A DNA stretch of 64,000 nucleotides, taken from Escherichia phage MIZ6. A program made the translations under genes and the position numbers. Under the pieces are notes generated by a model that was not told where the DNA came from, searched no databases, and saw only the letters and a program-made list of their open reading frames with translations. The stretch lies in sequence record OR192075.1; one strand, 5' to 3'. Shown here one piece after another: positions 1,859-38,272 of this stretch. Numbering within the stretch: position 1 is the first letter of the stretch; each line of letters begins with the position of its first letter.

Positions 1859-3862
1859 ATGACTCTATTATCACCGGGTTTCGAAACGAAAGAAACTACT
1901 CTCTCCACTACCATTGTGCAATCTGCGACTGGTCGCGCTGCACTGGTAGGTAAATTCCAATGGGGTCCAGCTTTCCAGATTATTCAAGTAACTAATGAAG
2001 TTGAATTAGTTAATAAATTTGGTCAGCCGGATAATAACACCGCAGACTATTTCATGAGCGGGGCTAACTTCCTCCAGTATGGCAATGACCTGCGTGTTGT
2101 TCGTGTATTGAATAAAGAAAAAGCGAAAAACGCAACTGCCCTAGCTGGTAACATCGAGTTTGAAATCACAAACGAAGGTTCAAACTATGAAGTAGGCGAT
2201 ACCATCAAGATTAAACATAACCGTCAAGATATTGAAACGGCTGGTAAAGTAACTAAAGTTGATGGTGATGGTAAAGTTAAGGGTGTATTTATCCCAACTG
2301 GTAAAATTATCGCTCACGCTAAAGCAATCGGTGTATATCCAGAACTTGATGGCGGTTGGACGGCAGAGTTCACTTCTTCGTCAGGTAACGGTAGTGCGGC
2401 GCTGTCAGTAACTAAAATTGTTACTGATTCCGGTCTTCTGTTAACGGATCTGGAAACTTCCCGCGCCAATATCACAAATCAGACTTTCTTGACTAAACTC
2501 CAGAAGTATGATATGCCAGCGGTAAGCGCGATCTATGCTGGTGAGATTGGCAACTCGCTGGAAGTTGAAATTCTGGCACGTAGCGCGTTCAGTGGCGCGG
2601 TAGCACCTGAATTAACTATATATCCGTTCGGCGGAACTCGTGCCGCAGCACGCAACCTGATTCCATATGCACCGCAGAATGATAATCAATATGCATTTAT
2701 TGTTCGTCGCGATGGTGTTGTGGTAGAATCCTATGTACTGTCTACTCTGAAAGGGGATAAAGACGTATACGGCAATTCTATCTACATGGACGACTTCTTT
2801 GCTCGTGGTTCTAGCCAGTACATCTATGCAACCGCTCAAGGGTGGGTAGATGGTTTCAGTGGTATTATCTCTCTTGCTGGTGGTGTTTCTGCTAACGAAG
2901 CAACGACTGCTGGTGTTGGTGCTGATCCGTTCATCGGTGCGATGATGCAAGGTTGGGATCTGTTTGCTGAACGAGAATCTATTCATGTAAACCTGTTGAT
3001 CGCTGGTGCATGTGCTGGCGAAGGCGATGCGTTCTCTACCGTACAGAAACATGCTGTTTCCATCGGTGATGAGCGTCAGGATTGCTTAGTAATGGTTTCT
3101 CCGCCGCGTAGCACTGTTGTTAATATTCCGGTGACTACCGCAATTGATAACCTGATTGCATGGCGCGAAGGTTCAGGAAACTATAATGAAAACAACATGA
3201 ACATTAATACCACTTACGCGGTTATTGATGGTAACTACAAATATCAGTATGACAAATACAACGACGTAAACCGTTGGGTTCCGTTGGCTGCTGATATTGC
3301 TGGTTTGTGCGCTCGCACTGATGCTGTATCCCAGCCGTGGATGAGTCCGGCAGGTTATAACCGTGGTCAGATCATGAACGTGGTTAAACTGGCAATTGAG
3401 CCTCGCAAGGCGCACCGCGATCGTCTGTACCAGGCCGCAATTAACCCGGTAATCGGTGCTGGTGGTGAAGGGTTTATCCTGATGGGTGATAAAACCGCTA
3501 CGACTGTTCCTAGCCCGTTTGACCGCATTAACGTTCGTCGTCTGTTTAACATGCTGAAAAAGAATATCGGCGATTCAAGCAAATACAAACTGTTTGAAAA
3601 CAACGATAACTTTACTCGCGCTTCCTTCCGTATGGAGGTTTCGCAATATCTCAGCACGATTCGCTCTCTGGGTGGCATTTATGACTTCCGAGTACAATGC
3701 GACACCACGAATAACACGCCGGATGTAATTGATCGTAATGAATTTGTTGCTAGTATGTTCATCAAACCAGCAAAATCGATCAACTATATCATGCTCAATT
3801 TCACTGCTGTTGCAACTGGTGCTGATTTTGACGAAATTATCGGTCCAGCTAACCAGGCATAA
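1859..3862 (+). CDS. 18: Tail sheath protein gp18
   Basis: 667-aa ORF; N-terminus MTLLSPGFETKE and long conserved blocks match T4 gp18. Confidence 0.95.
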   Translation: MTLLSPGFETKETTLSTTIVQSATGRAALVGKFQWGPAFQIIQVTNEVELVNKFGQPDNNTADYFMSGANFLQYGNDLRVVRVLNKEKAKNATALAGNIEFEITNEGSNYEVGDTIKIKHNRQDIETAGKVTKVDGDGKVKGVFIPTGKIIAHAKAIGVYPELDGGWTAEFTSSSGNGSAALSVTKIVTDSGLLLTDLETSRANITNQTFLTKLQKYDMPAVSAIYAGEIGNSLEVEILARSAFSGAVAPELTIYPFGGTRAAARNLIPYAPQNDNQYAFIVRRDGVVVESYVLSTLKGDKDVYGNSIYMDDFFARGSSQYIYATAQGWVDGFSGIISLAGGVSANEATTAGVGADPFIGAMMQGWDLFAERESIHVNLLIAGACAGEGDAFSTVQKHAVSIGDERQDCLVMVSPPRSTVVNIPVTTAIDNLIAWREGSGNYNENNMNINTTYAVIDGNYKYQYDKYNDVNRWVPLAADIAGLCARTDAVSQPWMSPAGYNRGQIMNVVKLAIEPRKAHRDRLYQAAINPVIGAGGEGFILMGDKTATTVPSPFDRINVRRLFNMLKKNIGDSSKYKLFENNDNFTRASFRMEVSQYLSTIRSLGGIYDFRVQCDTTNNTPDVIDRNEFVASMFIKPAKSINYIMLNFTAVATGADFDEIIGPANQA

Positions 3863-3896
3863 TCAGTAAATTAGCATAGATTAAAAGTTAAATCAA

Positions 3897-3915
3897 GCGG
3901 GGAGAAGTTCCCCGC
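3897..3915 (+). other. GC-rich hairpin GCGGGG-AGAAGTT-CCCCGC between genes 18 and 19 (copy 1 of 2 identical)
   Basis: Perfect 6-bp stem, 7-nt loop; no T-run after it; identical 19-mer recurs at 4443..4461. Confidence 0.6.
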
Positions 3916-3935
3916 TCTATTAAGGAATATCAATT

Positions 3936-4430
3936 ATGGCACTCGATTTGAATGATATTACACGCGGTTTCGAGTCTGGCGATTTTGCTCGTCCTAACCT
4001 GTTTGAAGTTGAGATCCCGTATCTGGGGCAAAACTTTAAGCTGATGTGTAAGGCTGCGACTGTCCCGGCTGCTACCGTAGAAAAAATTGCTGTAGGCTAT
4101 CAAAACCGTAAAATTAACATCGCTGGCGACCGTGTATACGACGACTGGACCATCACTGTATTCAACGATGACGCACACAAGATCCGTGATGCTATCGTTG
4201 CATGGAGCGATCAGACACATGGCACAGGTTCGGCGATCACTGGTGCAACTCCTGCACAATATAAGAAACAAGCTATTGTTCGTCAACTTAACCGTAACAC
4301 CGAATCAACTAGCGAAAAAACATTGTACGGTATTTTCCCGACCAACGTTGGTGAAGTAACCCTCGATTGGGAACAAAACAACGAAGTTGAAACGTTTGAA
4401 GTTACTTTTGCTATCGATTGGGTAGAATAA
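3936..4430 (+). CDS. 19: Tail tube protein gp19
   Basis: 164-aa ORF directly after sheath gene; size and position as T4 gp19. Confidence 0.85.
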   Translation: MALDLNDITRGFESGDFARPNLFEVEIPYLGQNFKLMCKAATVPAATVEKIAVGYQNRKINIAGDRVYDDWTITVFNDDAHKIRDAIVAWSDQTHGTGSAITGATPAQYKKQAIVRQLNRNTESTSEKTLYGIFPTNVGEVTLDWEQNNEVETFEVTFAIDWVE

Positions 4431-27413: not shown

Positions 27414-29465
27414 TTACATTTTAAATTTATCTGGCATTGCGTCTACAGATACCAGATCAGCGATAAGCTGACGTAGAGTTGCCTTATCTGCTTTCTTACG
27501 TTCGGTTTTAGCTTCGCTAATGAAGCTGGAGAAAGACAGGTCAGAAGCAGGTTTAACAACACCTTCACGGATGAATGCATCACCGTCCGCGATCATCTCA
27601 CCAGATTCTTGTAATGCTGCCAGTTCACTTTTGTTCATAATATGTGCCTCAATGTAATAAGTTTCTTGTGAATCCGTCGATGCCGTAGCACGAGTTACCG
27701 TATCAAAGGATAACACAACACCGCGAGGAAGTAAAATCTCGCATTCTTTGTAAGCAAATGCTTTGTTACCTACTGGCAATACAGGGATGTTTTCCGCGCC
27801 AGCAATGGAGAAAGCAACATTAGCGCCACCTTCACCGCGAGAGCCAGCCATAGAATCAACACCAGCAATGGCACTAGCCACGTTTGCATTCCAGCCACCA
27901 AAAATGTTAGGTGCAAGGGAAGTGCTCACATAGTTTTTAAAGTAAAACGCTTTTTGCTTACGTGCAGTTTCCCACATTTGAGACCGGAAGTCCATACCAC
28001 GATACAGAATAGTACCCGGATCAAGTTTAACGCCATAGTTAGAGAAGGCATTATCCAGTGCATCGCACATCTTGACCAATTCTTCTGGATCTGCGATTCC
28101 CTCAAACTCTTCCAGCTTACGATCAGTTAGGAAGTTGTTCATATTGATGTATGCTGCATCGGCATATTCGCTCAACACAAAACCTTCCGCGCCCGGCAGA
28201 TCAAGATCAATATCTGCCATCATTTCACCCATGTTGCTAGCAATTGCTTCAAACATACCGGACGCAACATTACGAAGGGCATCGGTTTTAATCTGGGTGA
28301 TATGACTACGCAGCATTTCAGCTTTTACATCTGCTGGCATAGACTGGTCTACTCGATCCATTGCCAGGGCGGTGATCTTGTTTTCGAATACTTCCTCGCT
28401 CATGATTTCTTTTAAGCGTTTGATTGAGGCTGCGATAACTTCCGCAGACAACGGATCATATTGATCCTGAACTTTTACCAGTTCGCTTACTGCGTATTTT
28501 GCATCGGCTTCGCTTTCAAAAATAGTACGCATGAAACCATAGCGAGTGATAATATCACTTGTCCAGTCATTCAGAGAACGAGCGGTTGAACGTTCTAAGG
28601 CTTGACGATCAATCAGAGTATTAAACTGTTTCTTAGGTTCGGCTTCGGTGATATCTTCTTCCGGTTTAAGATTAATTTTTTCTGGATGATTCACATAGTC
28701 GCTGTTATAGGTCGCTTGAGTTTTCAGCATTTCTTCTTTAGTCAAACGAGATTTAGCCGCTACGCGTTGTTCTGCTTCCGCGTTTCGTTCTTCTTCTGAC
28801 ACAAGACTAGCCGCATACGCCTCATCTTTAGTCAGAGATTCACCAGTAGCCTTAGATACCCAGCGATCACCTAAATCACTTTCTACTTTAGTGAACAAGG
28901 ATTCATCAAGTTTAATCCCTTTAATCTTATCAATCGCCATCCCGCGACGCTTGACAACAACTAAAGCGATCTTTTTGCTGGTCATTACTTCCTGCTGGAA
29001 TACTTCAAACTTCGGTGTACGACGCACCAGACGCTCTATAACGCGCTTAACCAGTTCGGTCTTACCTTTCATGCGGGATACGTTAAAACGGAACATAACA
29101 GCGTCTAATTGCGCTTTACGGGCTGTTTCCATAACCACATCAAAAGCACTTGCCATAACTGCAATCGGGTTATCGCCTAGACCATTTTTAAGCTGTACAA
29201 TACGACCGCTTTTGTTCATTTCGCACAGTACAACATGTGCGGTCTTGTCACCCATACGAATGATTTTAGGTGTTTTGTTGGTGAAGTTACAAAGACGGAC
29301 AATCACATCTTTATCGCGTGTCTGTACTGCAAAAAGCTGTTTAGGATTCTGCTTAGGCTTTAAGCACTGTACCGGAGCAATACTGCCAAAGTTTTCTTCC
29401 TCTTCCGTCAACAGCCATTTCTCGAAAGATTCAATCATTAGATCGTCGATTTCTAAGTTAAACAT
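27414..29465 (-). CDS. alt: ADP-ribosyltransferase Alt
   Basis: 683 aa; LYRGMDF ... YVSTS ... YKECEILLPRG; size and position (after gene 54) as T4 Alt. Confidence 0.8.
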   Translation of the reverse strand: MFNLEIDDLMIESFEKWLLTEEEENFGSIAPVQCLKPKQNPKQLFAVQTRDKDVIVRLCNFTNKTPKIIRMGDKTAHVVLCEMNKSGRIVQLKNGLGDNPIAVMASAFDVVMETARKAQLDAVMFRFNVSRMKGKTELVKRVIERLVRRTPKFEVFQQEVMTSKKIALVVVKRRGMAIDKIKGIKLDESLFTKVESDLGDRWVSKATGESLTKDEAYAASLVSEEERNAEAEQRVAAKSRLTKEEMLKTQATYNSDYVNHPEKINLKPEEDITEAEPKKQFNTLIDRQALERSTARSLNDWTSDIITRYGFMRTIFESEADAKYAVSELVKVQDQYDPLSAEVIAASIKRLKEIMSEEVFENKITALAMDRVDQSMPADVKAEMLRSHITQIKTDALRNVASGMFEAIASNMGEMMADIDLDLPGAEGFVLSEYADAAYINMNNFLTDRKLEEFEGIADPEELVKMCDALDNAFSNYGVKLDPGTILYRGMDFRSQMWETARKQKAFYFKNYVSTSLAPNIFGGWNANVASAIAGVDSMAGSRGEGGANVAFSIAGAENIPVLPVGNKAFAYKECEILLPRGVVLSFDTVTRATASTDSQETYYIEAHIMNKSELAALQESGEMIADGDAFIREGVVKPASDLSFSSFISEAKTERKKADKATLRQLIADLVSVDAMPDKFKM

Positions 29466-30028: not shown

Positions 30029-30058
30029 ATTATAGGGGGATCACCGATCCCCTGTCAA
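30029..30058 (-). promoter_or_regulatory. Early promoter cassette (TTGACA-18-TATAAT); spacer is GGGGATC-ACC-GATCCCC palindrome
   Basis: Consensus hexamers; spacer palindrome contains two GATC sites. Confidence 0.6.
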
Positions 30059-30065
30059 CAACTTT

Positions 30066-30584
30066 TTAGTTATTTTTTAATTGCTCATCTTGTAATAGGG
30101 CAATAACATGCTGTCGATGTTCTTCCGATTGAGGCACACCGAAAAAGTTTGTTTTGTAGAAATACTCTAATCGGTCTTCTCGTGTGCTCTCTTCCATCAT
30201 GATCGCGGGTAGTCCGAGATTTCGGAAACGTCGCTTTTCTGCTGGCGTAAAATCACTGTAATACAACATAGAATCATCATTACCAGCAATGCTAAACTCA
30301 TCATTCATAAAGGAGAATATTGCGTTTAAACGCTGTTTACCGTCCACGATTTCGATCTCATAGCGAGAGCCATCATCAATCTTAGCCATTGCGATAGCAC
30401 CAACCGGAAAATCATTAATCAGGTTTTCGATAAACATACGTTTGTTTTCGGTGTCCCATACCAAAGGACGCTGATAATCTGGGTTCATGTTGATATAGCC
30501 ATCTTCTAACCACGCCTCATAAACAGAGATGACAAAGTTTTTAGTATTGGTATAGTAACGGCGTTTAGGCGTTAAACGGTTCAT
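30066..30584 (-). CDS. DUF262 (ParB/Srx-like, GmrS N-domain-like) protein
   Basis: 172 aa from ATG 30584 (SD AGGAG upstream); motifs DYQRP and VDGKQR typical of DUF262. Confidence 0.55.
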   Translation of the reverse strand: MNRLTPKRRYYTNTKNFVISVYEAWLEDGYINMNPDYQRPLVWDTENKRMFIENLINDFPVGAIAMAKIDDGSRYEIEIVDGKQRLNAIFSFMNDEFSIAGNDDSMLYYSDFTPAEKRRFRNLGLPAIMMEESTREDRLEYFYKTNFFGVPQSEEHRQHVIALLQDEQLKNN

Positions 30585-30585
30585 G

Positions 30586-30918
30586 TTATAGTCTCCTGAA
30601 TGGATCATCACGTAAATCAATATCTTTTAAGAACTCATCCCATGAATGGCGGATATTGTTCTTAATTCTCCAGATAAGCGCAGGGATTGAACGCTCTCCC
30701 ATCTGGAAGTAGGGATCATATGATCCGTATGCCCAATATGCTACTACAATTCCACAATCAGCGCAATAGTATTCTATTTCACTTGCTGGCGACCAAATTC
30801 CATCAATATGATCGGTGATCCTGCTTTCGATGTTATGGCTATGGCAATCAGGGCAACGGATGCAATGACCTTGTTTATCGTAATTTGACGTTAGAGAATA
30901 CTTAAACAATCTCATCAT
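30586..30918 (-). CDS. Zn-ribbon protein, possible degenerate HNH-like His-Me finger
   Basis: 110 aa; CIRCPDCHSH ... DHID ... CADCG; stop abuts downstream ATG. Confidence 0.45.
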   Translation of the reverse strand: MMRLFKYSLTSNYDKQGHCIRCPDCHSHNIESRITDHIDGIWSPASEIEYYCADCGIVVAYWAYGSYDPYFQMGERSIPALIWRIKNNIRHSWDEFLKDIDLRDDPFRRL

Positions 30919-31631
30919 AGATCCTTATTGGCTTCAAATACTGCCTTTGCGAATCCTCGCGGGGTAAGTGACCTGATAGTCTTTGTTCTGGTTCCTTTCC
31001 CGCCTAGCTTAGAATGCTGTTTACTGTACCCTTTATTAATCTGCAACGGTTTCTTTTCTGGCATTATAAAGCCTTGTCCGGTCCATAAGCAAGTCTTTTT
31101 CGGGTACATATCACGGGCGGCAATATACTCAGGAAACGTAGGATGTTTATCATCTTCCGGCAAATAACCGCCATATTCCCACGGATGGAACATGTAATCA
31201 GGCTTACGCCACATACTAGAGATAACGCTTACAGGATTCTCTATCATGTAGGGAACTCCTATCCATTCACCCAAATAAGCGGTTATTTTAGCTGCCCGTA
31301 CATCATGAACTTGAATCAATGGTCCTTGTTCTCGTTTCTTTCGTTCAAAGTGCGCAGCGCCACTAACAGCTAAATTGGTGCACGGTGGGAATGCAAATAT
31401 AATATCCGGTTTCCCCCATTCAAGGTCCATTGCTCTTTCCAGCCAGTTCAAATCAATCCAGGTGTTTACATAGGTAATGTTTGGATGTTCAAATCTGGTA
31501 TTATACTTTTTGTATGTACCGTGGTCGGCGTCATCCGCATTAAAGCAGACTACCTTATGACCTGCTTTAGCCCATTCTAGCCCCATTATCCCCGATCCGT
31601 CAAAGTTGCAGAATATTAATTTTTGTTTCAT
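30915..31631 (-). CDS. Minimal C5-cytosine methyltransferase-fold protein
   Basis: 238 aa; FDGSG (motif I-like), FPPCT (motif IV PC-like), ENP (motif VI-like) at DNMT-like spacing; too short for a full TRD. Confidence 0.45.
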   Translation of the reverse strand: MKQKLIFCNFDGSGIMGLEWAKAGHKVVCFNADDADHGTYKKYNTRFEHPNITYVNTWIDLNWLERAMDLEWGKPDIIFAFPPCTNLAVSGAAHFERKKREQGPLIQVHDVRAAKITAYLGEWIGVPYMIENPVSVISSMWRKPDYMFHPWEYGGYLPEDDKHPTFPEYIAARDMYPKKTCLWTGQGFIMPEKKPLQINKGYSKQHSKLGGKGTRTKTIRSLTPRGFAKAVFEANKDL

Positions 31632-31873
31632 ATACGACCCTTTAACCCAGCACAGATTTTAGTCGGTTCTTTACCGTGCCACATTAAGTAAAGTCCGTTA
31701 ATGCGACCTTGTTTTGTGTGTGATTCTTTTCTGATCTTCTTATAGTGTCGTGCTTCCTCAACTGATTGTTTAGAATACCAATCATAAAGGAAGAGGCACA
31801 AAGGCCAACCATTAGCGGCCTTAATGCAGTTATTAAGAAATTCCTTATTGCGTTTAATTAATTTTCTTTTCAC
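31628..31873 (-). CDS. Hypothetical basic protein (81 aa)
   Basis: GTG start overlapping upstream stop (GTGA); GGGGG SD-like upstream. Confidence 0.4.
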   Translation of the reverse strand: MKRKLIKRNKEFLNNCIKAANGWPLCLFLYDWYSKQSVEEARHYKKIRKESHTKQGRINGLYLMWHGKEPTKICAGLKGRI

Positions 31874-32121
31874 GCTGCCCCCATTGGTTTGATAGTAACA
31901 GAATCTAAAAGACCTTTGTTAGCCAGTTCGCGGCAAGTTTTCAGATCCGCAACTTCCCAGCCAGCCGCAATCAGGTTATCAATGAGGCTGTTAGCAACTT
32001 CTTCGCTCATGAAAGAGCACTGTTTGCCTATGGTGTAGCGTACACGCTGTAATTTCAGTTTACGGAAGCCTTTAACGTTCAGGTCTTTAGCGATTTTCTT
32101 TGCGGTTTCGATGTTAGCCAT
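31870..32121 (-). CDS. Hypothetical protein (83 aa), first gene of operon
   Basis: ATG preceded by GGAGAATCAAAC leader. Confidence 0.5.
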   Translation of the reverse strand: MANIETAKKIAKDLNVKGFRKLKLQRVRYTIGKQCSFMSEEVANSLIDNLIAAGWEVADLKTCRELANKGLLDSVTIKPMGAA

Positions 32122-32161
32122 TGTTTGATTCTCCTAAGTGGTATCTCGTCTTGATGGTTGT

Positions 32162-32191
32162 ATTGTAGGGGATCTCCCGATCCCCTGTCAA
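32162..32191 (-). promoter_or_regulatory. Early promoter cassette (TTGACA-18-TACAAT), palindromic GATC spacer
   Basis: Spacer GGGGATC-GGGA-GATCCCC; heads the five-gene operon 30066..32121. Confidence 0.55.
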
Positions 32192-32448: not shown

Positions 32449-32922
32449 TTATTTGCACCAAATTCGAATGATTTCGTCTCGTTCAAATTTTTGCCAGATT
32501 ACTCGGTCGCCCGCTGCCATAATACTGACAAATCCAGTTATATTTCCGGTGTACTTGCTTTTAGTTTCTGCATCATATTCAAAGAATGGAGCTTTAAGAT
32601 CGCTAAACTCATCTTTTCCCACAAACTTCATAACATGACGGTGTGCGTAATATTCGCTTCTTAGTGTTGTTGTGATAGTTCCGTCATCATTTGATTTCAG
32701 ATGCAATTCGGCATCTTCATAAAGACTTGCATCTCGTTGTTTACTTTCGATACCATCATTATATGTTGATTTGGTTGCACTCCAACATTGATATGTCTTA
32801 TCTACATTTTCGATCTTTTCCTGTGTCATGTCAAAAAGCGGCGCAACCTTTTTCTTAGCCGCGTGCGCAACGTTGGTCATAGACAGTGCCGCAACAACCG
32901 CAATAGCAATAATTTTCTTCAT
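32449..32922 (-). CDS. Predicted secreted/periplasmic protein
   Basis: 157 aa; N-terminal signal peptide MKKIIAIAVVAALSMTNVAHA followed by AKKK. Confidence 0.55.
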   Translation of the reverse strand: MKKIIAIAVVAALSMTNVAHAAKKKVAPLFDMTQEKIENVDKTYQCWSATKSTYNDGIESKQRDASLYEDAELHLKSNDDGTITTTLRSEYYAHRHVMKFVGKDEFSDLKAPFFEYDAETKSKYTGNITGFVSIMAAGDRVIWQKFERDEIIRIWCK

Positions 32923-36723: not shown

Positions 36724-36752
36724 ATTATAGGGGATCACCGATCCCCTGTCAA
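36724..36752 (-). promoter_or_regulatory. Early promoter cassette (TTGACA-17-TATAAT), palindromic GATC spacer
   Basis: Spacer GGGGATCACCGATCCCC. Confidence 0.6.
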
Positions 36753-37849: not shown

Positions 37850-37878
37850 AGTATAGGGGATCGGTGATCCCCTGTCAA
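37850..37878 (-). promoter_or_regulatory. Early promoter cassette (TTGACA-17-TATACT), palindromic GATC spacer
   Basis: Spacer GGGGATCACCGATCCCC on minus strand. Confidence 0.55.
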
Positions 37879-38243: not shown

Positions 38244-38272
38244 AGTATAGGGGATCACCGATCCCCTGTCAA
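38244..38272 (-). promoter_or_regulatory. Early promoter cassette (TTGACA-17-TATACT), palindromic GATC spacer
   Basis: Spacer GGGGATCGGTGATCCCC. Confidence 0.55.

Follow-up and report, generated by a model that had tools for sequence, protein, structure and literature searches.

A predicted compact Dcm-type cytosine methyltransferase and its likely passenger genes in a PeSL-bounded early operon of Escherichia phage MIZ6

Phage K42 (Drexlerviridae), whose genome is 95% identical to that of the BASEL phage KarlJaspers, carries a 711-bp dcm gene that was mutated in four of four mutants escaping retron Ec86; expressed from pBAD as the sole phage gene, K42 Dcm places 5-methylcytosine (5mC) on multicopy single-stranded DNA (msDNA), as detected by LC-MS (liquid chromatography coupled to mass spectrometry), and triggers the retron, and its C82A/E128A/K175A/K176A variant is inactive and does not trigger it (bioRxiv 10.1101/2023.08.16.553469). 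DUF262 proteins such as NsnA, SspE and GmrSD carry a DNA-binding middle domain beside a ParB-DUF262 core (PMC12065111), and in phages RB49 and phi1 PeSLs, which are early promoters with an embedded stem-loop, have been described as mobile regulatory cassettes by which ORFans are shuffled in hyperplastic regions (Arbiol et al. 2010, PMC2839356). All three subjects meet in the locus analyzed here, which lies in a 64,000-nt stretch of Escherichia phage MIZ6 (sequence record OR192075.1; hereafter the window), where one early promoter heads five minus-strand genes between positions 30066 and 32191 whose products include a 238-aa methyltransferase-like protein, a 110-aa protein with zinc-binding cysteines and a 172-aa DUF262 protein.

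An earlier note on this DNA had taken these three proteins for a miniaturized modification plus GmrSD-like module. The motifs that it quoted for the 238-, 110- and 172-aa products are all present in the translations, as is the arrangement of five genes with overlapping stop and start codons behind a single early promoter. We consider it likely, however, that the locus is something else: a compact phage Dcm in an early accessory cassette bounded by PeSLs, in which the co-transcribed and coupled neighbours are passengers acquired independently. The main yield of the analysis is thus a correction, from an apparent miniature methylase joined to a GmrSD-like module to a well-known compact Dcm and two unrelated accessory genes.

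The 238-aa protein (30915-31631, minus strand; RB49 ORF189c) is, as judged from its sequence, a compact stand-alone orphan DNA cytosine-C5 methyltransferase of a known phage family whose function has been validated. Across 39 aligned family members, F10, G12, S13 and G14 of motif I (F10-D-G12-S13-G14) are kept in at least 90%; P82-P83-C84-T85 of motif IV (F81-P82-P83-C84-T85) and E131-N132-P133 of motif VI are invariant, as is K178 in the PKKTC segment, where K179 is kept in at least 90%. Near the C-terminus L209-G-G211 and I219-R-S-L222 are invariant and K212, T223, P224 and G226 reach at least 90%; this LGGKS...IRSLTPRG segment (R220-S-L-T-P-R-G) resembles motif IX. The family phrog_757 ("DNA methyltransferase") matches residues 1-237 with E = 7e-91, and the predicted fold is nearest to solved DNA C5 methyltransferases, with DNMT3 the closest, in agreement with the DNMT catalytic fold that the earlier note had expected from motifs I, IV and VI. 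The large target-recognition domain (TRD) between motifs VIII and IX is absent, some 70 residues separating the ENP region from IRSLTPRG. The protein is therefore too short for a normal TRD, as had been remarked, but this is not peculiar to MIZ6: it has 7,320 homologs, and 120 of 120 among the matches listed measure 219-259 aa. Given that the short length is common to the whole family, the MIZ6 copy is not a truncation.

Nor is the enzyme the unusual miniature that it had seemed, since the family is common and its characterized member works without any other phage protein. Members occur in 1,523 of 50,697 phage records, usually annotated as Dcm or "Dcm-like C5 cytosine methyltransferase"; T1-like, HK578-like, rV5-like, phiKO2, Webervirus and BASEL phages are among the carriers. 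A precomputed PF00145 match is present in a few relatives (P0003, P0016 and P0027). The link to the characterized enzyme runs through KarlJaspers (Bas06), whose gene bas06_0055 (711 bp, product of 236 aa) encodes a protein with 56% identity to the 238-aa protein over its full length (BLASTP 2e-92), and in which C82, E128, K175 and K176 align with C84, E131, K178 and K179 of MIZ6. The methyltransferase thus belongs to a broadly conserved gene family of known function; the other two genes do not.

From what is known of the family, the enzyme would be made early in infection and would act alone, dependent on S-adenosylmethionine (SAM) that is bound by FxGSG; the attack on C6 of the target cytosine would fall to Cys84 of the PPC motif, and the protonation of N3 to Glu131 of ENP. 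Its most probable target would be a specific short sequence in phage DNA as it replicates and, as a side effect, in host DNA, and the methylation may blunt type II restriction by the host; the site of the characterized relative is CCWGG, the Dcm/EcoRII site. We commit ourselves to this assignment, a predicted orphan anti-restriction methyltransferase. The five genes, for their part, would have been gathered by cassette shuffling in a hyperplastic region, and would not be subunits of one machine.

The 172-aa product (30066-30584, minus strand; RB49 ORF187c) is a solo DUF262 protein. PF03235 matches it with E = 4.4e-20 (73 bits against a cut-off of 33.2), its translation carries D-Y37-Q-R-P, and the motif set Y37-Q-R-x-x-V-W43, D81-G-K-Q-R85 and N146-F-x-G-V-P-Q-S-x-E-H156 is invariant in 39 family members. 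The best Foldseek matches of its AlphaFold model (predicted local distance difference test score, pLDDT, 92.8) are ParB-CTP N-domains, PadC, Noc, BrxU, SspE, sulfiredoxin and Osa, and its profile finds the solved DUF262 proteins 9jfl (5e-6), BrxU (2.5e-4) and SspE (4e-3). The Pfam match, the profile hits and the AlphaFold/Foldseek comparison thus agree with the DUF262 assignment and the ParB/Srx fold given in the earlier note, and by its model the protein is a complete DUF262 domain of this fold, which probably binds a nucleoside triphosphate. Among PADLOC models, NsnA matches with E = 6e-21 over model positions 47-188 of 385 only, that is, its DUF262 part, and PD-T4-2_A with E = 4e-12. The protein ends directly after the DUF262 core and lacks both a nuclease and the DNA-binding middle domain, and no DUF1524/HNH (GmrD) nuclease was matched in any of the five products by Pfam or PADLOC. 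With neither a nuclease domain nor a nuclease gene, the proposed GmrSD-like enzyme did not hold up. Homologs of the DUF262 family are found in 319 phage records; solo forms of 160-195 aa recur in large virulent phages (Pseudotevenvirus, Slopekvirus, ENC19, JC221, POP12 and Phynn), and the solo subfamily is also present in some phage-like regions of Vibrio genomes.

The gene between these two encodes the 110-aa protein (30586-30918, minus strand; RB49 ORF188c), which on the pattern of its conserved residues is a plain, stand-alone four-cysteine zinc ribbon without a catalytic motif. Its translation contains C19xxC22xxC25, D36-H37 and C52xxC55; an alignment spanning four phage lineages leaves C22, C25, C52 and C55 as the sole invariant residues besides a Y-G-x-Y-x-P segment, which falls within a conserved YWAYGSYxP motif that follows the ribbon. 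C19 and D36-H37 vary among lineages, the D36-H37 pair being replaced by DQ, VI or FT in homologs, and since this pair is not conserved the protein is not an HNH nuclease. Of the two possibilities raised before, a zinc ribbon or a His-Me finger, the first therefore stands and the second falls: the DH and C19 positions are not conserved, neither Pfam nor NCBIfam searches match the protein to an HNH family, and its relatives are small and stand-alone. The protein matches phrog_2993 (function not known) with E = 1e-33, and Pfam Zn_Ribbon_TF with E = 6.5e-4, below the cut-off. An exhaustive HMMER search gathers 175 representative clusters, nearly all of 55-140 aa and with no fused enzymatic domain, and homologs are found in 227 phage records, among them those of Nonagvirus/Seuratvirus, Gorganvirus and Felixounavirus.

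If the three proteins formed a functional module, their genes would be expected to travel together, and outside Krischvirus no such linkage was found. Their distributions are separate and wider than the module (1,523, 227 and 319 phage records for methyltransferase, zinc ribbon and DUF262, respectively), and at the DNA level the complete block is found in 56 records, all of Krischvirus, with 578 other matching records sharing the dcm segment alone. We compared 80 IMG/VR loci that carry a dcm-family gene, with up to 10 kb of flanking sequence on each side (tblastn at E <= 1e-3; profile hidden Markov models (HMMs) of the zinc ribbon and DUF262 at E <= 0.01). Within ±10 kb, none of the 79 non-Krischvirus loci has a tblastn match to the zinc-ribbon, DUF262, 81-aa (p81) or 83-aa (p83) gene, and none of the 79 has an HMM match to the zinc ribbon or DUF262. 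Seen from the other genes the outcome is the same: beside the zinc-ribbon genes of JenK1, Mushroom and PM-CJR lie unrelated genes, with no methyltransferase or DUF262 gene among them; at ten solo-DUF262 loci in five distinct contexts neither a dcm nor a zinc-ribbon gene was found; Phynn carries both a dcm and a solo DUF262 gene more than 4 kb apart; and KarlJaspers has no zinc-ribbon or DUF262 homolog in 50 of its 51.5 kb. The annotated neighbourhoods of JenK1, Mushroom, PM-CJR, Lw1, Miro, KarlJaspers and Phynn, together with the scans, thus led us to reject conserved synteny of the three genes, whose block in other genomes is confined to Krischvirus. Going by these comparisons, the three are neighbours in Krischvirus only and give no sign of a modification-plus-restriction module; on present evidence the lack of co-conservation points to roles of the zinc ribbon and DUF262 proteins that are independent of the methyltransferase.

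In Lw1 and Miro the solo DUF262 gene sits between a gene for a membrane-like protein of ~108 aa and a coupled gene for a protein of 304-319 aa, and three further contexts differ again, with no dcm or zinc-ribbon gene nearby. No counterpart of the ~108-aa and ~310-aa neighbours exists in the window, and the idea that they are a divergent zinc ribbon or Dcm was dropped (BLASTP E ~10, no Pfam domains). The conserved 304-319-aa protein (positions 3004-3963 of the Lw1 locus, L007, and 3004-3918 of the Miro locus, L008) has no Pfam match, is encoded in RB43-like and Slopekvirus phages, and could be a partner or effector of the solo DUF262 protein in these lineages. A separate observation concerns phage kaaroe, in which an extra, translationally coupled 59-aa gene (positions 1284-1463 of its locus, L009) lies between the zinc-ribbon and DUF262 genes; it is absent from MIZ2, so that insertions are tolerated in the operon even where no PeSL flanks them.

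The genomic setting provides a history for such a collection of genes. The genome is of the Krischvirus (RB49-like coliphage) type, the region matching Escherichia phages MIZ2 and MIZ3 at 100% identity and RB49, Phi1, GEC-3S, JSE and some 50 further Krischvirus genomes at 97-98.5%. The operon is headed by a PeSL, an early promoter of the sigma-70 type that contains a stem-loop (32162..32191, minus strand; 11 of 12 consensus positions) and reads TTGACA-GGGGATC-GGGA-GATCCCC-TACAAT from 32191 to 32162 with a spacer of 18. Its downstream bound is the next PeSL promoter (30029..30058, minus strand; 12 of 12 consensus positions), which reads TTGACA-GGGGATC-GGT-GATCCCC-C-TATAAT from 30058 to 30029 and heads a 59-aa gene downstream of the DUF262 gene. 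In both, the GGGGATC...GATCCCC stem-loop is followed by a Shine-Dalgarno sequence, and both promoters are annotated in the curated GEC-3S record NC_025425; the gene block is also present in GEC-3S and RB49. The PeSL core TTGACAGGGGATCnnnGATCCCC occurs in four exact copies in the window against 0 expected (30036-30058, 36730-36752, 37856-37878 and 38250-38272, all minus strand), and these copies mark out the early-promoter cassettes of a hyperplastic region.

By alignment, the promoter that heads the operon is orthologous to the PeSL between ORF191 and ORF190 of RB49, which was one of two places of crossover among the sequenced PeSL mini-circles, one of these having formed there (Arbiol et al. 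2010, PMC2839356). Bracketing by PeSLs, together with a mini-circle crossover at ORF190/191, makes the accretion of unrelated accessory genes the expected history of the locus. Just upstream, a 157-aa protein with a signal-peptide-like N-terminus (32449-32922, minus strand) is 58% identical to RB49 ORF192c, against ~97-99% for its neighbours; ORF192c is an ORFan with demonstrated PeSL mini-circles (Arbiol et al. 2010, PMC2839356), and a divergence so far above that of the neighbours suggests cassette replacement at this position.

Two small genes precede the methyltransferase gene in the operon. The 83-aa gene (31870-32121, minus strand; RB49 ORF190c), which among the 80 dcm loci is present at the Krischvirus locus only, has a product that matches phrog_14908 (function not known, E = 5e-59); its only other match, a weak one in PADLOC (E = 2.6e-5), covers positions 722-785, in the C-terminal part, of the 938-position RT_UG35 (DRT) model. 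The 81-aa gene (31628-31873, minus strand, GTG start; RB49 p189.1) has a product that matches phrog_7065 (function not known, E = 4e-38). From the 83-aa to the 172-aa gene, the junctions are GTGA, ATGA and ATGA overlaps and then TAA-C-ATG, overlapping or nearly abutting stops and starts that fit translational coupling of all five. No terminator-like site separating the five genes was found; the sole such site on the operon strand (31194..31172, with 3 G-C pairs) sits inside the 238-aa gene and is probably a chance occurrence. In RB49 the order is the same, ORF190c, p189.1, ORF189c, ORF188c and ORF187c, followed by ORF186c, ORF185c and alt; directly downstream of the accessory-gene region, the window encodes a 683-aa Alt-like RNA polymerase ADP-ribosyltransferase (27414-29465, minus strand), an arrangement shared with RB49 and GEC-3S.

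Several observations weigh against the reading of the locus as a Dcm with passengers. PF00145 gives the 238-aa protein 15.2 bits over residues 10-100 only, below its gathering cut-off of 22 bits, and the family profile barely detects any solved C5 methyltransferase, M.HaeIII being found at E = 0.96 with a marginal motif-I match; single-protein sequence searches against solved structures found nothing, and an NCBIfam search gave no useful matches. The LC-MS proof of 5mC belongs to the K42-type Dcm, which is 56% identical, and that the Krischvirus Dcm forms 5mC is a prediction. Virion DNA of the Krischvirus TB34 contains no modified nucleoside by high-performance liquid chromatography/mass spectrometry (HPLC/MS) (PMC13390438), a null result that could reflect very sparse sites or packaged DNA without methylation. 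Tight coupling of the dcm, zinc-ribbon and DUF262 genes is kept in 56 of 56 Krischvirus records, and such genus-wide coupling is compatible with a lineage-specific functional link. Finally, CCWGG is avoided in the window, with 27 sites observed against 72.5 expected (observed/expected ratio, O/E, 0.37), so that Krischvirus may protect CCWGG only in part or have done so for a short time only, or its enzyme may have another specificity.

This avoidance sets Krischvirus apart. KarlJaspers has 125 CCWGG sites against 121 expected (O/E 1.03, no avoidance), and most dcm-bearing phage loci do not avoid the site either, with pooled O/E of 0.91-1.09; strong avoidance, unlike in most dcm phages, suggests that site specificity or protective value probably differs. 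In the window GAATTC (0 observed, 18 expected), CTGCAG (0 observed, 8 expected), GGCC (O/E 0.34) and CCSGG (O/E 0.30) are avoided as well; GATC is not (O/E 1.05). Two explanations for the CCWGG deficit were tried and found no support. A loop of ~12 residues before LGGK is of the GYSKQH type in the MIZ6 enzyme and of the DNPGW type in KarlJaspers, but loci of both subtypes (GYSxQH and DNPGW) are mostly non-avoiding (pooled O/E 0.91 and 1.09), and Krischvirus departs from the rest of its own subtype. Loss by deamination of 5mC would leave CTWGG and CCWAG, which in a crude test show no enrichment (O/E 0.51). Both HpaII and NheI cut RB49 DNA, which contains neither 5-hydroxymethylcytosine (hmC) nor glucosyl-hmC (PMC4041780), and in DNA of this type, which lacks bulk cytosine modification, any methylation must be sparse and site-specific.

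Another observation concerns the Krischvirus SAP, which is reported to carry hmC and glucosyl-hmC; its relative TB34, 99.96% identical, has plain cytosine, no pathway has been found, and Krischvirus lacks dCMP hydroxymethylase and glucosyltransferases (PMC13390438). Over an aligned 3.5-kb locus, SAP and TB34 differ by a 79-bp insert, one 1-base indel and one terminal mismatch, and by nothing else. The insert is a PeSL-like duplication of promoter and ribosome-binding site between the DUF262 and 59-aa genes (window position ~30034; positions 835-913 of the SAP locus, L002, aligned with L003), and it creates a 38-aa open reading frame (SAP_052); MIZ2 is like TB34 at this position. The indel and the mismatch lie upstream of the operon, and the five coding sequences are identical. 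Because all differences fall outside these coding sequences, the operon is not sufficient for the modification of SAP DNA, and we rejected it as a sufficient cause of the difference between the two phages.

The module proposed in the earlier note, in which the methyltransferase marks self and the DUF262 and zinc proteins sense and cut the hmC or glucosyl-hmC DNA of competitors, draws on real features of the locus: the genes are adjacent, translationally coupled and under one early promoter, the DUF262 domain is genuine with its nucleotide-binding motifs intact, and solo DUF262 genes recur in the T4-like genera Pseudotevenvirus, Slopekvirus and Krischvirus. A modification-dependent weapon would also be harmless to the phage itself, Krischvirus DNA being essentially unmodified, and some relatives of T4 lack hmC genes and probably have no major DNA modification (Petrov et al. 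2010). What tells against it is that no nuclease was found, the zinc protein conserving its four cysteines but no His, Asn or Asp and matching neither an HNH nor a DUF1524 profile, and the DUF262 protein stopping right after its core domain; that no linkage of the genes was found outside Krischvirus; and that the DUF262 homologs in Lw1 and Miro have wholly different neighbours. We consider such a module decidedly improbable. More improbable still would be a methyltransferase-like enzyme that installs hydroxymethyl or carboxymethyl at C5 and so feeds the cytosine hypermodification of SAP. It would address the presence of hmC and glucosyl-hmC in a genus without dCMP hydroxymethylase or glucosyltransferases, and one of the few differences between SAP and TB34 does lie at the edge of the operon. 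Yet the operon genes of the two phages are identical while TB34 cytosine is plain, the close homolog K42 Dcm makes 5mC, RB49 DNA lacks hmC and glucosyl-hmC, and there is no glycosyltransferase.

The coupling within Krischvirus could instead reflect counter-defence, the 5mC made by the phage exposing it to attack and the solo DUF262 protein serving as a decoy, poison subunit or nucleotide sink against DUF262 enzymes of the host. BrxU cleaves 5mC DNA, with a preference of 5-glc-mdC > 5-mdC > 5-hmdC among deoxycytidines (mdC) modified at position 5, and TB34, which carries the operon, is not restricted by BrxU (PMC13390438). The solo DUF262 protein resembles the BrxU N-domain in both sequence profile and fold, and the dcm, zinc-ribbon and DUF262 genes are adjacent in all 56 Krischvirus records. 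The immunity of TB34 to BrxU is, however, more simply explained by its unmodified DNA; the 1,467 remaining phage records with a dcm gene get by with no DUF262 gene next to it, solo DUF262 occurs in phages without dcm nearby, and the similarity to BrxU is remote (E = 2.5e-4, ~12% identity), making the formation of heteromers doubtful. We regard this explanation as unlikely. The more specific proposal that the dcm and solo DUF262 genes of Krischvirus are a co-adapted pair, in which the DUF262 protein, perhaps with the zinc ribbon, neutralizes BrxU/GmrSD-like enzymes and retron Ec86, seems to us to have a small chance of being right; its positive support would be adjacency in a single genus. Retron Ec86 occurs naturally in BL21, which is one of the E. 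coli B strains, and E. coli B, which is not known to have a Dcm of its own, also serves as the growth host of RB49 and MIZ2. If the proposal were true, solo DUF262 proteins would constitute a new class of phage anti-defence proteins that mimic a sensor domain of host immunity.

The reading of a compact Dcm with independently acquired passengers leaves the solo DUF262 protein as the only really unexplained element of the locus. It is a complete sensor domain without an effector, recurrent in large virulent phages, and its role would tell if an immunity sensor common in bacteria is reused or mimicked by phages. Avoidance of CCWGG in spite of a Dcm matters for predicting restriction escape and triggering of retron Ec86 in therapeutic RB49-like phages, and the 79-bp insert of SAP may be relevant to the puzzle of its cytosine hypermodification.

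Compared with known systems, the operon resembles the PeSL and ORFan cassettes of RB49 and phi1 in being bounded by PeSLs; mini-circles were seen in RB49, and for MIZ6 the comparison is of sequence alone. The description of those cassettes treats the present open reading frames as anonymous ORFans and makes no mention of methylation, restriction or cytosine (Arbiol et al. 2010, PMC2839356). With GmrSD and BrxU the 172-aa protein shares the DUF262 N-terminal domain and its nucleotide-binding motifs, the fold comparison with BrxU giving a TM score of 0.51 (query-normalized); it has neither their DUF1524/HNH and middle helical domains nor a separate GmrD gene, it is less than a third of the length of BrxU (~587 aa), and it is encoded by a virulent phage, whereas GmrSD and BrxU belong to a host or prophage defence island. 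It likewise shares the ParB-DUF262 core with Menshen NsnA, SspE, DndB and PD-T4-2, of which NsnA is its best PADLOC match; NsnA has in addition a ParBDB domain and is accompanied by genes for the NsnB ATPase and the NsnC effector, which are absent from the 172-aa protein and the operon (PMC12065111).

The methyltransferase itself is ~90-240 residues shorter than M.HhaI, M.HaeIII and E. coli Dcm (PF00145), and differs from them in having no large TRD. DNMT3, whose TRD is reduced, functions as an oligomer. The closest likeness is to K42/KarlJaspers Dcm: although the one comes from a Drexlerviridae siphovirus and the other from a T4-like myovirus, the two agree in architecture (236 and 238 aa), in the FxGSG, PPC, ENP, KKTC and IRSLTPRG segments and in the four residues essential for activity, and both are orphans with no cognate restriction gene.

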